Notes under the pieces: generated by a model | What the model was told of the DNA's origin: nothing | The model's database searches: none | What the model saw: only the letters and a program-made list of their open reading frames with translations | DNA from: Patescibacteria group bacterium | Lineage (GTDB): Bacteria; Patescibacteriota; Minisyncoccia; Moranbacterales; DUUL01 | Direction: 5' to 3' | NCBI GenBank assembly: GCA_015493225.1 | Contig: WGDO01000024.1 | Location: 1-59,857 of the forward strand | Length of the DNA: 59,857 nucleotides | Position numbers and translations under genes: made by a program | In this document: piece after piece, positions 3,042 through 50,399 of the stretch | Layout of the letters: every line of letters starts with the position of its first letter | How positions within the stretch are numbered: the stretch's first letter is position 1

Positions 3042-3641
3042 ATGAAAAAGATATTTGAGGAAATTTGGAAGTTGGCTTTGCCTTATCAGGACAAAAGAGA
3101 TGATAAGGGGCACGCAGAGATTACAACAAATTATGCAGTTCAATTATTGAAGTTGGAGAAAGCCAATGAAGACGTTGTCGTTCCGGCAATTATTTTACAT
3201 GATACTGGCTGGAGTCAATTGTCATCAAAAGACAGAATGCTCATATTTAATCATCAAGCGACCAAGAAGCAAAAGCTGACAGTGCGATATAAACATCAAG
3301 ATGCTGGTGTTAAAATAGGAAGAGAAATTTTAGAAAAGGTTAATTATCCATCAGAATTAATACCGGAAATTTTAGAAATAATTTCTCAGCATGATACTCG
3401 GAAGGATTTTATTTCTTCTGAGGATGGTTTAGTTAGAGACGCTGATAAATTGTGGCGATTTTCGAAAACAGGTTTTGATGCTGATATAATTCGTAATAGA
3501 TTTGATTTTTGGGGATTGTATGATAAATTGAAAGAGCATAGAATTGAAAAGGATGGATTTTTTTATTTTAAACAAGCAAAAAAACTTGCTTATAAAGAAC
3601 TAGAAAAACGAAAAAAGGAATATTTAAGAGAAACTAATTGA
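3042..3641 (+). CDS. HD-domain phosphohydrolase
   Basis: 199 aa. HD motif in AIILHDTGW, then a later QHD...RDADKL pattern typical of HD superfamily metal ligands. Confidence 0.8.
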   Translation: MKKIFEEIWKLALPYQDKRDDKGHAEITTNYAVQLLKLEKANEDVVVPAIILHDTGWSQLSSKDRMLIFNHQATKKQKLTVRYKHQDAGVKIGREILEKVNYPSELIPEILEIISQHDTRKDFISSEDGLVRDADKLWRFSKTGFDADIIRNRFDFWGLYDKLKEHRIEKDGFFYFKQAKKLAYKELEKRKKEYLRETN

Positions 3642-40759: not shown

Positions 40760-41815
40760 CTATTTAGAAAGGGTATTAGTAACTTCTTGTTGTAATGCTT
40801 TAATAATTTTATCAATATCACCATTAAGAATTCCATCTAAATTACTCCAGGACTGTTTAATGCGGTGATCGGTTACACGGTCTTGGGGGAAATTGTATGT
40901 TCTAATTTTTTCACTACGATCGCCGGTACCAATTTGTCCCTTTCGTTGTTCACTGGATTCTTTTTGTTTTTTTTCTTCTTCGGCTTGGATAATTCTAGAA
41001 CGAAGAACTTTCATCGCTTGTTCTTTATTTTGAATTTGACTTTTTTGATCTTGACAGGAAGATACGACGCCTGTGGGTAGGTGGGTAATTCTAACGGCAC
41101 TCATGGTTGTATTCACGCTTTGTCCTCCTGGTCCTGAGGCAGCAAAAGTATCAATTCGTAAATCCTCCTTTTTAATTTCCAGGTCTATTTCTTCGGCCTG
41201 GGGAAGAATGGCTACGGTGGCAGTGGAAGTGTGGATACGACCTTGTTTTTCTGTTTCGGGAATTCGTTGAACTCGATGTACTCCTGATTCGTATTTCATT
41301 TTTTCATAAACATGATTGCCAACTATTTCAAAAATAATTTCTTTGTAACCATTTAAAGCGTTGGGATGGGAATCAAGAATTTTAATTACCCAATTTTGTG
41401 TTTCGGCATAGCGAGAATACATTCTAAATAAATCTCCCGCAAATAATCCAGATTCATCCCCACCAGCGCCCGCTCTTATTTCTACAATTACATCTTTTTC
41501 ATCATTGGGGTCTTTTGGCTTTAAAAGAATATCTAATTCTTCTTCCAGTTGAGCAATCTTTTCTTTGATGATAGCGTTTTCTTCTCTGGCCATTTCGGCT
41601 AATTCTGAATCTTCGCTACTGCTGGCTAGAGCTTCATTTTCAATAAATTGATTTTGTTGATTTTGTAATTCTTCTTGAACAGAAATTAATTTGTCTAATT
41701 CTGTTTTTTTGCCAGCTAATTTTTTTAGCTTAGCTCCATTGGAAAAATTATCCGGATTAGCAATCTCGGTTTCTATTTCTTGTAGTTCTTGTTTTAGTGA
41801 ATCTAGATTTGGCAT
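40760..41815 (-). CDS. prfA: Peptide chain release factor 1
   Basis: GGQ motif ([11 protein letters not shown]). PxT-type tripeptide [14 protein letters not shown]. Confidence 0.95.
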
Positions 41816-41851
41816 TGTGGCAGTAGAGTGATACTTAATTTTGTTTACAAT

Positions 41852-41889
41852 AAATCCCGTCTAGTTATAGTATAACACAAACGGGATTT
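41852..41889 (-). terminator. Hairpin downstream of rpmE (weak terminator candidate)
   Basis: aaatcccgt-(20 nt)-acgggattt. The U-tract is poor. Confidence 0.4.
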
Positions 41890-41897
41890 AAGGGTAG

Positions 41898-42242
41898 CTA
41901 TTTTTTAGTTTGTTTCTTTGTTTCTTTGGAAGGTGTAGCTGTTTTCGAAGATGTTGTTTTTTTTGTACTTTTTTTACTAGATTTTTTTGCTTTGCTTTTT
42001 TTTGCTTTTTCTTTTGCTTCTTTTTCTGCTTGCATTTTTTTAGCCATCTCCATTTTTTTCTGAAATCTGTCTACTTGACCAGCACTATCTACTAATTTCT
42101 TCTTTCCAGTATAGAAGGGGTGACAGGCACTACAAATTTCAATTTCAATTTTTTCTACAGTTGAGCCAACTTTAAAAACATTACCGCAGGCACAGGTGAT
42201 AGTAGCATTGTCATAATACTTAGGGTGAATTTTTGGTTTCAT
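41898..42242 (-). CDS. rpmE: 50S ribosomal protein L31 with a Lys-rich C-terminal extension
   Basis: [10 protein letters not shown]...CACG...[11 protein letters not shown], followed by a K/S/T-rich tail of about 45 aa. Confidence 0.93.
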
Positions 42243-42331
42243 AAAATTAAATTAAATCTTTAATCAATTAAATACTGAGTAATGGTAGCATACTAATCGG
42301 AAAAAATCAAGTATTTACTCTTTTAATTTTG

Positions 42332-42512
42332 TGGGCGATCCAGGACTTTTACCCCGTCGAATGACTGGGGCACCCTAATCGGGCCGGTCTTTTGTGGGCT
42401 ATGCCAGCACAAAAGTCTTCTCGTCCTAGTCCGAAAGTGAAGCAGTTCACTTTCTCTCTCATCTATTAAAAATTATTTTAATTGTGAGAGTTGCTTGTAA
42501 AAACAAGCTTTG
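42332..42512 (-). repeat. tRNA-Ile-linked structured element ending in an exact copy of tRNA-Ile positions 58-73
   Basis: 42328-47 (tttgtgggcgatccaggact) repeats 42508-27. The interior shares modules with the tRNA-Ala-linked units: gaaagNNaagcagttNNctttc, gtcctagtccg, gccc-loop-gggc, ccccgtcgaatgactgggg. Confidence 0.7.
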
Positions 42513-42586
42513 TGGGCGATCCAGGACTCGAACCTGGGACCTCGTCGTTATCAGCGACGCGCTCTAACCACCTGAGCTAATCGCCC
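42513..42586 (-). tRNA. tRNA-Ile (anticodon GAT)
   Basis: GGGCGAT TA GCTC AGGTGGTTA GAGC G CGTCG CTGATAA CGACG AGGTC CCAGG TTCGAGT CCTGG ATCGCCC A. 74 nt, clean cloverleaf, CCA not encoded. Confidence 0.93.
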
Positions 42587-42639
42587 GTTGTTTTACTAAA
42601 TCTAAAATTATATAGAGAACTTATTTATTAATTGTTGGC

Positions 42640-42704
42640 GCGACGCGCTCCCCGCCCGAATGTACCGTTCGGTACGGGCGGGTAACCACCTGAGCTAATC
42701 GCCC
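42640..42704 (-). pseudogene. tRNA-Ile 5' fragment (positions 1 to about 33) interrupted in the D-loop by a 32-nt GC-rich hairpin
   Basis: 42683-42704 plus 6 nt of leader repeat 42565-42586 and flank. 42640-42650 repeats the D-stem and anticodon-stem 5' strand. The insert cccgcccgaatgtaccgttcggtacgggcggg spans 42651-42682. Confidence 0.7.
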
Positions 42705-42841
42705 GTTGTTAATTAGTAATTAAAAATTAGTAATTAAAAATGGGAAACTTAAAATTTTAAATTATAATTTTATTGAACTTATAATATTTTATTATTAATT
42801 CTTAATTATTAATTCTTAATTAACTCAAATAAAGATGTATG

Positions 42842-43047
42842 TGGACCAGACAGGACTTTTATCCCGTCGAATGACTGGGGCGCCTTAGTCGGGCCTGTCC
42901 ATCCCTTAGCAAAGGGCTGGACTTCGAGTCCTAGTCCGAAAGCCAAGCTATTTATCCCTCGTAGCTTTAGCGAAGTGGGAGTTGGCTTTCTCTCTCCGTT
43001 TGAAGAGTGCTATTCTATTTTAACACATCTTGAGATAAAGATGTATG
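42842..43047 (-). repeat. tRNA-Ala-linked element, unit A (206 bp), ending in a copy of tRNA-Ala positions 58-73
   Basis: Tandem with unit B. Relative to B it has a 23-nt module (tttatcccgtcgaatgactgggg) and a 31-nt insertion in the gaaagccaagc/ttggctttc hairpin loop. Confidence 0.7.
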
Positions 43048-43199
43048 TGGACCAGACAGGACTCGCCCTAGTCGGGCCTGTCTATCCCTTAGCAAAGGGC
43101 TGGACTTCGAGTCCTAGTCCGAAAGCCAAGCAGTTGGCTTTCTCTCTCCGTTTGAAGAGTACTATTCTATTTTAACACATCTTGAGATAAAGATGTATG
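43048..43199 (-). repeat. tRNA-Ala-linked element, unit B (152 bp), ending in a copy of tRNA-Ala positions 58-73
   Basis: ataaagatgtatgtggaccagacaggact recurs near 42831, 43037 and 43189. Unit B lies directly downstream of the intact tRNA-Ala. Confidence 0.7.
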
Positions 43200-43272
43200 T
43201 GGACCAGACAGGACTCGAACCCGCCACCTCCTCAGTGCAAATGAGGTGCTCTACCAGATGAGCTACTGGCCC
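43200..43272 (-). tRNA. tRNA-Ala (anticodon TGC)
   Basis: GGGCCAG TA GCTC ATCTGGTA GAGC A CCTCA TTTGCAC TGAGG AGGTG GCGGG TTCGAGT CCTGT CTGGTCC A. G3:U70 identity pair present. 73 nt. Confidence 0.93.
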
Positions 43273-43320
43273 TTTGGAATAATTAAAAATTAAAAATTAA
43301 AAATTAAATTTTTATACCAG

Positions 43321-43372
43321 GCCAAGCTATTTATCCCTCGTAGCTTTAGCGAAGTGGGAGTTGGCTTTCTCT
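43321..43372 (-). repeat. 52-bp fragment identical to part of unit A (hairpin module with the 31-nt insert), downstream of tRNA-Asp
   Basis: gccaagctatttatccctcgtagctttagcgaagtgggagttggctttctct equals 42942-42993. Confidence 0.8.
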
Positions 43373-43426
43373 ATCGGCTAATTAATTTAAAGCTATCCAT
43401 AGTATGTTTTCTTCGAATATGCTTTG

Positions 43427-43500
43427 CGGGGACGAAGGGACTCGAACCCTCGACCTTCTGCGTGACAGGCAGACGCTCTAACCAGCTGAGCTACGCCCCC
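43427..43500 (-). tRNA. tRNA-Asp (anticodon GTC)
   Basis: GGGGGCG TA GCTC AGCTGGTTA GAGC G TCTGC CTGTCAC GCAGA AGGTC GAGGG TTCGAGT CCCTT CGTCCCC G. 74 nt. Confidence 0.93.
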
Positions 43501-43849
43501 ATAGATTAATTTTCAATTTTCAATTTAAAATTTTCAATGAATGTTTTAATTAATAATTTATGAATTTTGAAATAAGTGTCAACTCTTAAATCTTAAATTC
43601 CCAAATTCCTAAATTTTTGATTAACAAGCGTACTTATATAATAATAGACTATTTTAGAGTTTAGTCAAGGGGTTAAATATCTCGAGTAATAGTCTTTTGT
43701 AATTAGTGAAGAGTAAAGCATTTTGAGCAACTAAATCAATGGCAAAAGTAAAATTAAAAGTTTACAGGACTGTGTATATTTAATTGTAAATTTAGTTAGT
43801 ATGTTAGCATGAAATTGAAACTGGAAAGTAGCTATTGAAAATAATTTTA

Positions 43850-48606: not shown

Positions 48607-48740
48607 AGCAATAATTCTAAAGTCAAAAGTCTATAAAGTCAAAAGTTTACCCTGTTAAGACCTCAATAAGGTCAAAAGTTTGAAAATAATTATACTATAT
48701 TATAGACTGTTGAATTTTTAATTCTTAATTTTTAATTATA
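48607..48740 (-). repeat. rpmI-rplT spacer, paralogous to the infC-rpmI spacer
   Basis: Shares tctaaagtcaaaagtctataaagt, ggtcaaaagttt and attatagact.ttgaatttttaattcttaatt with 48942-49080. On the coding strand it reads TTAAGA-N18-TATAAT. Confidence 0.6.
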
Positions 48741-48941: not shown

Positions 48942-49080
48942 ATAATAAGTCTAAAGTCAAAAGTCTATAAAGTTTACCCCGTCGGATGACTTGGGGTCAA
49001 AAGTTTTAATATGATGTATTACAAAACATTATAGACTATTGAATTTTTAATTCTTAATTCTTAATTCTTAATTAATGAAA
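48942..49080 (-). repeat. infC-rpmI spacer, paralogous to 48607-48740; carries the ccccgtcggatgacttgggg hairpin module
   Basis: See 48607-48740. The module at 48977-48996 also occurs in the tRNA-linked elements. Confidence 0.6.
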
Positions 49081-49784: not shown

Positions 49785-49979
49785 TTTTTAATTTGAAAAT
49801 TATTGATTGTTTACTATTCATAGTTTATGATAGATTATTTAAAAATTGAAAATTTAAACATTGAAAATTGATTGAAAATTGAAAATTGAAAATTTTAAAT
49901 TAGGGGACTAAAATAATTCCTTAAATTTTCGTTTTTAAAATTTTAGCAACTTTTATTTAAGGAGCCTAAAATATCTTAG

Positions 49980-50399
49980 TGGAGGTGGTGAGAATCGAAC
50001 TCACGTCCAGAGTTGATTATTAAAAACCGTCTACAAGCTTAGTTTGTTTTATTTGAAATTGTAAACAATTTCATAATGAATACGAAAACTCTAAATAAAC
50101 AAAATATTTTCAATTCATTTCTTTGGTGCGCTTGGGATATTTCGCCAAAGAAAAACAAAATATCTGCGTCCTAATGTTGACGTCGGGTCTAGCCTATTAG
50201 GCATCGGCTAGGCGACGGGCTGTTGCTCAATTAGGCTACAGCGGCAGTAAAACTTGGCATTGCAAACAAGTTTGCGAATGCTGTTTTTACTCGTGTTTTT
50301 AGATTTGCACTTAAATCTTTTGTAGGCAGTTTTATGAGTTACCTACCAGCTCAACTTGCAAATTTTCAATGAAACAACCTGTCGAGGCCTGACACCCCC
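49980..50399 (-). ncRNA. ssrA: tmRNA
   Basis: The 5' end GGGGGUGUCAGGCCUCGACAGG pairs with the 3' end GGACGUGAGUUCGAUUCUCACCACCUCCA (T-arm GUGAG/CUCAC, G3:U70 present). Candidate tag frame GCA UUC GCA AAC UUG UUU GCA AUG CCA AGU UUU ACU GCC GCU GUA GCC UAA at 50281 down to 50231. Adjacent to smpB. Confidence 0.85.

Follow-up and report, generated by a model that had tools for sequence, protein, structure and literature searches.

What lies behind the tRNA-Ala and tRNA-Ile genes of a Patescibacteria group bacterium is the question raised by contig WGDO01000024.1 (assembly GCA_015493225.1), all 59,857 nucleotides (nt) of which were analysed and are referred to here as the window. Each of these genes is followed on the same strand by short units that close with a copy of the preceding tRNA's 3' end, and both the nature of the units and the way in which each came by the end of its own host call for an explanation. 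We read them tentatively, and with a little less than even confidence, as non-coding, non-autonomous, duplicative elements of the 3' ends of tRNA and transfer-messenger RNA (tmRNA) genes, anchored at the T-loop and modelled with a fold like the top half of a tRNA.

The minus strand from 41800 to 43800 was read directly, with tRNA genes called by ARAGORN and Rfam and repeats by a repeat finder. A first-pass annotation of the window had described two tandem units of 152 and 206 nt behind an intact tRNA-Ala, and direct reading and the repeat finder agree (units A1 and A2); the unit it placed behind tRNA-Ile (unit I) is also present, but is 181 nt long rather than 180. Every unit ends, as had been said, in exactly the last 16 nt (A58–A73) of its own tRNA, with AGTCCTGTCTGGTCCA occurring three times at tRNA-Ala and AGTCCTGGATCGCCCA twice at tRNA-Ile. 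The common 3' trailer extends over 13 nt at tRNA-Ala but over merely 4 nt (CAAA) at tRNA-Ile, and identity to the tRNA often extends past A58 to G57 or C56. The module GAAAG-NN-AACTGCTT-NN-CTTTC is present with its CC/GG versus TG/CA swap, CTTTCGGACTAGGAC occurs three times against a chance expectation of 0.6, and the optional hairpin CCCCAGTCATTCGACGGGG is found in units I and A2. What does not stand is the description of the hairpin modules as separate pieces, as GGACTAGGAC pairs at long range with the tRNA-end copy and supplies the 5' strand of the resulting helix (P2). A fragment was also reported behind tRNA-Asp and is there, with 55 nt that are 98% identical to the P1 hairpin region of A2 and share its 32-nt loop insert (repeat finder), but the different T-stem of tRNA-Asp is no barrier to the element, because full units follow tRNA-Asp in the relatives L004, L045, and L048 (loci are designated by L numbers throughout).

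The units consist of a spacer directly after the host gene, a conserved core, and the copy of the host 3' end, which spans from T-loop C56–A58 to N73 plus C74. When 24 units are folded singly they share one architecture. P1 is a hairpin of 7–9 base pairs (bp) with the invariant loop AACUGCUU and is followed by a short joiner; in P2, an internal GGGAC(UCG) is base-paired to the (CGA)GUCCC that the tRNA-end copy supplies; and a conserved GAAG next to the P2 5' strand leads into hairpins P3 and P4, of variable length, inside the junction. As modelled, the three-way junction so formed is closed off by an acceptor-like helix together with a T-like one and has the look of a tRNA top half. A covariance model constructed from seven relatives recovers the three window units and no others in the 59.8-kb window, and folding of the units was scored against shuffled sequence (both scores are in the table below). 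With 23 distinct sequences aligned to the model, 88.5% of cells are paired (73.8% in shuffles), both sides have changed in 21 of 38 pairs, and the covariation score is 0.373 versus 0.125 in shuffles, none of 500 shuffles being as high and slid-partner controls reaching at most 0.11. Compensatory swaps occur in P1, P3, and P4, those in P4 including GCCC/GGGC to GCCU/AGGC, UCC/GGA, and CUC/GAG. The covariation sought by the first-pass annotation is thus present, and its suggestion of a structured RNA with a tRNA-like 3' half gains some support from the covarying fold and from the pairing of the end copy to an internal antisense strand, but a test of strand preference, considered below, is neutral.

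The internal strand follows the host gene. At P2 position 69/223 the pair is G-C in 12 units and A-U in seven, tracking a host T-stem of CCC or CCU, so that GGGAC/GUCCC and AGGAC/GUCCU pairings are both found among the aligned units. At L019 a host T-loop of TTCGAATCC is accompanied by the unit internal strand GGGAUUCG / GGGAUUCGAAG, and in a unit behind a tmRNA gene (L009), whose T-loop is TTCAATT, the internal GGCGGAATTGAA is the exact complement of TTCAATTCCGCC. A long type of unit extends the correspondence to the acceptor stem, with 7–8 nt directly 5' of P1 complementing the acceptor 3' strand (GGGCATAA with TTATGCCC in L042; TGCGCGAT in L031); complementarity is greater to the acceptor strand of the same unit than to those of other units (p = 0.025), the ten long-type units ranking 0–3 of 23. 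From this pairing the long-type fold can be described as a one-armed tRNA top half, in which P1 lies between an acceptor-like helix and a T-like helix, the latter with P3 and P4 in its loop. In the short type found in the window, acceptor pairing amounts to just 4 bp (GGAC/GUCC) at tRNA-Ala and is mismatched at tRNA-Ile, where the unit still carries the Ala-type GGAC; likewise, an Ala unit in L005 carries an identical and untuned Asp-type core. The Ile mismatch and the untuned L005 copy together indicate that tuning comes after transfer. At L030 (2693–3100, plus strand), tRNA-Arg is followed by a partial second 3'-half copy with a compensatory T-stem change and then by a unit, the internal strand of which fits the second tRNA-Arg copy and not the gene.

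Further copies were sought in two ways. Syntenic loci were fetched through relatives of RF1 (the prfA product), and the exact pattern AACTGCTTNNNTTTN{5,12}GGACKMGAAG was scanned in large genome and metagenome collections, a pattern that demands AACTGCTT and GGAC and so partly imposes both the loop conservation and the host T-loop type of its matches. The scan gave 22 genome and 24 metagenome loci; about 40 copies are real, and six matches lie inside coding sequence of unrelated organisms and are due to chance. The copies are spread over Patescibacteria (Saccharibacteria, Parcubacteria, Kaiserbacteria, Campbellbacteria, and others), Elusimicrobia, and one Acidimicrobiales genome; nearly all follow a tRNA gene at a distance of 12–70 nt, and the strand is always that of the host. 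The hosts include at least 15 different tRNAs, among them those for Ala (UGC, GGC), Ile, Asp, Val, Leu (several anticodons), Gln, Arg, Met, and Lys, and the tmRNA gene of L009 (1188–1582) is a host as well, with a unit downstream at 1079–1190 on the minus strand whose 3' copy retains just the last ~14 nt of the tmRNA. L043 (532–1900) is a 1.3-kb version with a 313-aa methyltransferase-like open reading frame (ORF) between tRNA-Gln and the core, and with an acceptor strand that matches tRNA-Gln; it is the sole copy with a cargo gene between host gene and core. Rfam 15 has nothing on the units, either in the window (at E <= 10 and at the gathering threshold) or in nine long-type loci (E <= 1), the matches in those scans being to tRNA, tmRNA, and RNase P alone, and our literature searches found no description of the arrangement, which the first-pass annotation had likewise not recognised. 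The family is therefore uncatalogued, widespread, and crosses phyla, and it is probably wider than sampled.

No blastn match to a long-type unit was found in phage and plasmid collections, nor any match to the full exact pattern in viral contigs, and a scan of the viral contigs with P1 only gave three chance matches inside genes, which are non-complementary. An identical 22-nt P1 hairpin, GAAAGCCAACTGCTTGGCTTTC, is present in L054 (5523–5544, minus strand) and L057 (6356–6377, plus strand; the same in L059 and L060), within another GC-rich structured region by tail or nozzle-like genes of viral contigs that has neither a tRNA nearby nor a match in Rfam; these occurrences may be due to chance.

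ORFs were compared all against all at 34 loci, and the 123 ORFs within 3 kb of a unit were scanned against Pfam. Among the 25 most often matched of the 131 families with a match (the flanking families below) there is no integrase, transposase, HUH protein, or reverse transcriptase, and no IntI, TnpB, IscB, or Cas12k; the 39 ORFs scanned in the window are all housekeeping and include no integrase, transposase, or reverse transcriptase. Two associations do appear, based on three or four loci each: a gene for the CCA-adding enzyme is within ~2 kb of a unit in four independent loci (L015, L021, L025, and L027), and a LAGLIDADG ORF is just upstream of the host tRNA in three (L026, L037, and L048).

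Comparison of close relatives shows the units being gained and lost. The closest, L001 and L002, have the order Asp, remnant, Ile, pseudo-Ala, Ala, rpmE, with a remnant orthologous to that behind tRNA-Asp in the window but no unit behind tRNA-Ile or tRNA-Ala, such that three units in the window compare with none in L001, where gene order differs. L004 and L005 have identical RF1 proteins and are of the same species, and both have an Asp unit ending in the Asp 3' end. Only L005 has an additional unit behind tRNA-Ala, with an 85-nt core identical to the Asp core but ending in the Ala 3' end; L004 lacks this unit but retains 12 nt of its 5' edge, a state that may reflect deletion between repeats. 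Copy number also varies between assemblies of the same organism (two units in L017, one in L035), and tandem units recur in the independent assemblies L014, L017, and L021. At an orthologous Ala(GGC)-unit-Arg(CCU) locus in four genomes the copy usually fits the local tRNA, L051 being an exception, and between L027 and L014/L046 the copy matches the tRNA even though the T-stem has changed on both strands, which argues for repeated homogenisation of copy and gene.

The direct repeat made up of the tRNA end and the bases that follow it varies from 17 to 98 nt at about 30 loci, and falls into three classes: the end only, to C74 or a few bases past it (at least ten units, the spacers of which bear no relation to the native trailer); the end together with some of the spacer; and the end, the whole spacer, and the 5' part of a second core. 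Where the repeat ends at N73–C74, C74 follows N73 in all ten of ten copies. The repeats are almost perfectly identical as far as an abrupt break, past which nothing is recognisable, and for this reason the short repeats are not decayed long ones; an origin as decayed long target duplications was rejected, spacer and downstream flank having no residual similarity. Distal copies often lack their 3' part, and many spacers begin with CAAAGC and a hairpin with covarying arms.

Features of the tRNA-Asp to tRNA-Ile region of the window. Bits are covariance model scores, and z is the folding score against shuffled sequence.
Feature	Coordinates	Strand	Size	Basis or score	Remarks
Promoter-like sites	43668-43641 and 43582-43555	-			Upstream of tRNA-Asp
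tRNA-Asp(GUC)	43426..43500	-		ARAGORN, Rfam	First gene of the cluster
Unit remnant 3' of tRNA-Asp	43321..43425	-		Repeat finder, direct reading	3'-truncated
tRNA-Ala(UGC)	43200..43272	-		ARAGORN, Rfam	Hosts A1 and A2
Unit A1	43048..43199	-	152 nt	77.7 bits; z -3.8	
Spacer of A1	43150-43199				
P1 of A1	43121-43142				
Antisense strand of A1	~43108-43120				GGACTAGGACTCG; followed by P3 and P4
tRNA-Ala A58-A73 copy in A1	43048-43063				
Unit A2	42842..43047	-	206 nt	43.8 bits; z -2.9	In tandem with A1; adds to A1 the 32-nt P1-loop insert and a hairpin
Added hairpin of A2	42862-42880				CCCCAGTCATTCGACGGGA; at the junction of core and tRNA copy
tRNA-Ala end copy in A2	42842-42857	-			
tRNA-Ala trailer, third copy	42829..42841	-	13 nt		CATACATCTTTAT; end of the direct repeat
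tRNA-Ile 5' pseudo-fragment	42638..42710	-		Direct reading, repeat finder	Positions 1-21 and 23-32, preceded by AACAAC
tRNA-Ile(GAU)	42513..42586	-		ARAGORN, Rfam	Hosts unit I
Unit I	42332..42512	-	181 nt	86.4 bits; z -3.6	Spacer opens with hairpin GCTTGTTTTTACAAGC; core with P1 (TG/CA swap), internal strand GGACTAGGAC, P3, and P4
Promoter-like site in unit I spacer	42501-42472				
Extra hairpin of unit I, at the core/copy junction	42352-42370				
tRNA-Ile A58-A73 copy in unit I	42332-42347	-			CAAA next

The remnant behind tRNA-Asp begins its spacer with CAAAGC, and the break is directly after the 3' strand of its P1 hairpin. There are no terminator-like sites in this tRNA and unit region of the window. 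The pseudo-fragment upstream of tRNA-Ile has a 33-nt GC hairpin inserted in the D-loop and breaks at the anticodon loop. Similar 5' pseudo-copies of a neighbouring tRNA are found in L001 (616–690, Ala) and L005 (~3380–3470, minus strand, Asp), with a GC-rich hairpin substituted for some of the anticodon or D arm; they are a mirror image of the 3' duplications, break at the anticodon loop or at the T-stem/T-loop boundary, and in L005 the copy is preceded by an 83-nt copy of the upstream flank. The order of the Asp, Ala, and Ile tRNA genes differs in L004–L006 and other close relatives (Asp-Ala-Ile, Asp-Ile-Ala, or inverted relative to rpmE), and the contigs of L001, L002, L003, and L007 end at this locus.

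Genes of an ordinary kind surround the locus, namely rpmE, prfA, the dcw cluster, and those for ATP synthase, and the relatives of RF1 put the organism within Patescibacteria, close to the Moranbacteria. Ribosomal protein L31 (41898–42242, minus strand) has a lysine-rich C-terminal extension of ~50 residues. The tmRNA gene of the window (49977–50399, minus strand) has an unusually long predicted tag, ANLKTRVKTAFANLFAMPSFTAAVA, and is not followed by a unit. Between infC and rpmI (48977–48995, minus strand) there is a hairpin, CCCCAAGTCATCCGACGGGG, followed by TAAA, with a close likeness to the optional module found exactly where core and tRNA copy join in units I and A2, and a similar hairpin with TAAA precedes rplT (about 48650–48690, minus strand); these may be a small mobile hairpin or ribosomal-protein leaders.

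In the mechanism that we favour, a unit would be transcribed either by read-through of transcription begun at the tRNA promoter or by way of a weak promoter within the unit's spacer, and the tRNA-like closing helix would yield a 3' end that is handled as that of a tRNA, by RNase Z and then by the CCA-adding enzyme. New copies would arise by recombination or template switching on CGAGTCC, a motif found both in the T-loop of the host and at the core's 3' edge, an event that would automatically put the 3' end of the new host behind the core; compensatory change would later tune the internal strand to that host. Unequal exchange between the direct repeats would make arrays grow or shrink, keep copy and gene identical, and leave truncated distal copies, and no dedicated enzyme encoded in cis would be required. 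Placement of the host's own end in this way explains both L005 and the Ile unit of the window, which an end carried by the element cannot.

Several observations weigh against this mechanism. An anchor of 7 nt is short for recombination without an enzyme. Breaks or inserts in or at the P1 loop have arisen three times independently (L004, L016, and the window A2 unit together with the Asp remnant), which suggests a specific site of cleavage or recombination that the mechanism leaves unexplained; breaks right after P1 occur in L045 and the window Asp remnant. In one clade the distance from tRNA end to P1 loop is a constant 64–67 nt although the spacers cannot be aligned, which hints at a measuring protein. 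Simple read-through is opposed by the terminator-like hairpin between tRNA and core in several long-type spacers (L025, L016, L031, and L037). As to the fold, the covariation alignment was fitted to the model's own structure and so favours it, although the unaided RNAalifold result for P1 and P2 and the slid controls agree with the fold. In 19 of 24 units the fold of the tRNA-sense strand is more stable than that of the antisense (mean -3.6 kcal/mol, p = 7e-4), but the advantage may come from loop bonuses; the predicted pairs hold 19 G.U versus 20 A.C, leaving the strand test neutral between RNA and DNA, and P1 and P4 are almost purely Watson-Crick, a pattern no less in line with palindromes at the DNA level than with RNA. 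The apical loops of P3 are GC-GNA-GC mini-hairpins, which are stable in DNA too. An analogy to the hairpin ribozyme (A|GUC in the T-loop and a GAGAAG strand) was set aside, as the GUC is Watson-Crick paired in the model and the Rfam model has no match.

Much of this would follow more readily if the units were miniature integrative elements moved in trans by an unlinked tyrosine recombinase or HUH-type enzyme, an explanation that we consider somewhat unlikely but that is the most serious of the alternatives. Crossover would take place in the T-loop, the mobile form would be a small circle of tRNA-end copy, spacer, and core, and the sense and antisense copies of the target would fold in single-stranded DNA to rebuild the target duplex, as in the integron attC site and the attP(+) site of CTX phage, with the element bringing the tRNA-proximal 3' end copy that restores the gene. 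The genes of tRNAs and tmRNA, and the T-loop in particular, are classical targets of integrases, and arrays that extend in tandem beside the gene, the methyltransferase cargo of the 1.3-kb L043 version, and P3 loops of a type very stable in DNA are all in keeping with such elements. A trans-acting enzyme also accounts better than our favoured mechanism for the units whose repeat runs exactly from C56/A58 to C74 with a spacer foreign to the native trailer, for P1, P4, and P2 stems that are almost purely Watson-Crick with G.U not above A.C, for the way in which breaks cluster at the P1 loop, and for the constancy of the interval between gene end and P1. It does not explain how one core comes to lie at two tRNAs with the end of each (Asp and Ala in L005, Ala and Ile in the window), as an element-borne end cannot do this, nor the repeats of 74–98 nt that include a locus-specific trailer. 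A core conserved across three phyla would demand an equally conserved trans factor, and neither the flanking families nor the 39 window ORFs include a recombinase; no full copy was found in the phage, plasmid, or viral collections. The integration-footprint reading of the first-pass annotation gains from the recurrence of the layout at ~40 tRNA genes and one tmRNA gene, with strain-variable presence, but is not thereby proven.

The transfer of a core without its old tRNA end in L005 could also reflect copying through RNA, in which a read-through transcript is reverse-transcribed by a resident enzyme (such as that of a diversity-generating retroelement or group II intron), and the complementary DNA is put in place through the T-loop microhomology, by priming or template switching there, giving rise to the duplication. 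A fixed T-loop junction opposite a variable one and the common orientation of element and host gene fit this route, as does the tRNA-like 3' end, retroplasmid reverse transcriptases using templates that end in this way. Truncations, however, remove the 3' part of the units where target-primed reverse transcription would remove the 5' part, there is neither a CCA between the tRNA end and the next sequence nor an A-rich tail, and the flanking families include no reverse transcriptase; we regard this route as quite improbable.

That the units are inert scars of deleted islands or prophages once integrated at these tRNA genes, with neither activity nor function, is very improbable. The 3' fragments of tRNA genes are well known as integration leftovers or attR sites (PMC9897764), and the 5' pseudo-fragments and rearranged tRNA order at the locus attest to a history of recombination; but the same core is kept with compensatory changes across phyla and ~15 kinds of tRNA, sizes are tightly clustered with the 1.3-kb L043 as the one larger relative found, and recent intragenomic copies exist in L005. 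Mis-assembly of a repeat as the source of the A1/A2 tandem is scarcely credible. The contig ends of close relatives do mark the region as hard to assemble, but two insertions and several substitutions set A1 and A2 apart, tandems recur in three independent assemblies, and single units are present in more than 30. A split or intron-containing tRNA, a T-box, a MITE (miniature inverted-repeat transposable element), and an array of the CRISPR type were ruled out on anatomy.

If the elements we favour are real and active, the ends of tRNA and tmRNA genes host self-propagating sequences of 100–200 bp even in tiny genomes poor in mobile DNA; targeting information would reside in complementary copies of the target and not in a linked enzyme, and self-directed duplication would become testable. 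A more far-reaching form of this, which we consider unlikely, is a hitherto undescribed class of mobile elements without proteins that home to tRNA and tmRNA T-loops by means of sense and antisense copies of the target end, regenerate the host gene, and cross phyla; they would carry a self-contained and re-tunable targeting hairpin, which would work as single-stranded DNA in its folded state or else as an RNA with a tRNA top half, handled by universal tRNA enzymes. Should the units be processed into tRNA-like RNAs, they would constitute a new and widespread class of RNA in the Candidate Phyla Radiation, Elusimicrobia, and Actinobacteria, perhaps connected with how tRNA 3' ends are processed or receive CCA. 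In practical terms, the units account for contigs that break at these loci and for spurious calls of partial tRNAs there, and the covariance model can now be used to annotate them.

Among known systems, the layout is closest to that of tRNA and tmRNA islands and prophages of the T-loop class, with an intact gene, an insert, and a displaced 3' fragment that runs from the T-loop to the gene end or just past it, with tandem accretion beside the gene, and with both tRNA and tmRNA hosts. The units, however, are 100–250 bp, ~100-fold smaller, non-coding, and free of an integrase; one conserved core occurs at ~15 tRNAs in three phyla together with an internal antisense copy of the target end, and some unit repeats take in 60–80 nt of locus-specific trailer. 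Cis-mobilizable elements (CIMEs) and MITEs are similarly short, non-coding, multi-copy, strain-variable, and presumably dependent on functions in trans, but neither is conserved across phyla as the units are. The ends of a unit (spacer start and core end) are not inverted repeats like those of MITEs, and its repeat varies between 17 and 98 nt where MITEs have a duplication of fixed length; no related autonomous parent was found of the kind that CIMEs have.

The integron attC site and CTX attP(+), the latter used by XerCD, are also imperfect hairpins of 60–150 nt formed by inverted copies of a site around a variable apex, orientation-specific and arranged in tandem, and in the units the internal antisense strand pairs with the end copy around P3 and P4 in a comparable way. 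Neither an R''/R' core (RYYYAAC / GTTRRRY) nor dif-like arms are conserved in the unit alignments, there is no IntI among the flanking families, and the target is a tRNA T-loop rather than attI or dif. Another parallel is with guide RNAs encoded at transposon ends (the omega RNA of IS200/IS605 TnpB and the delocalised CRISPR RNA of type V-K transposons, which target tRNA genes), in that a structured scaffold precedes ~16 nt identical to the end of the adjoining tRNA gene, but in the units these 16 nt are base-paired inside the element and not free as a guide, and no TnpB, Cas12k, or transposase is among the flanking families.

At the RNA level, the comparison is with the tRNA-like domain of tmRNA, the viral 3' tRNA-like structures, mascRNA, and YrlA, a bacterial Y RNA that mimics tRNA (PMC4201824), all of which have an acceptor-like and a T-like helix in one stack, leave a discriminator-type 3' end free, and replace the rest of the tRNA by other structure. 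An acceptor-like helix of ~7 bp continuous with the T-like helix is found in the long type, and the short type of the window has 4 bp. The units differ in having no Rfam match, in a T-loop that is zipped up and expanded by P3 and P4, and in helices that copy the sequence of the adjoining tRNA and not a fixed one. On our analysis, the arrangement would be a variation on the known kinds of integration footprint and tRNA mimic, with a real chance that it represents a new self-targeting class.

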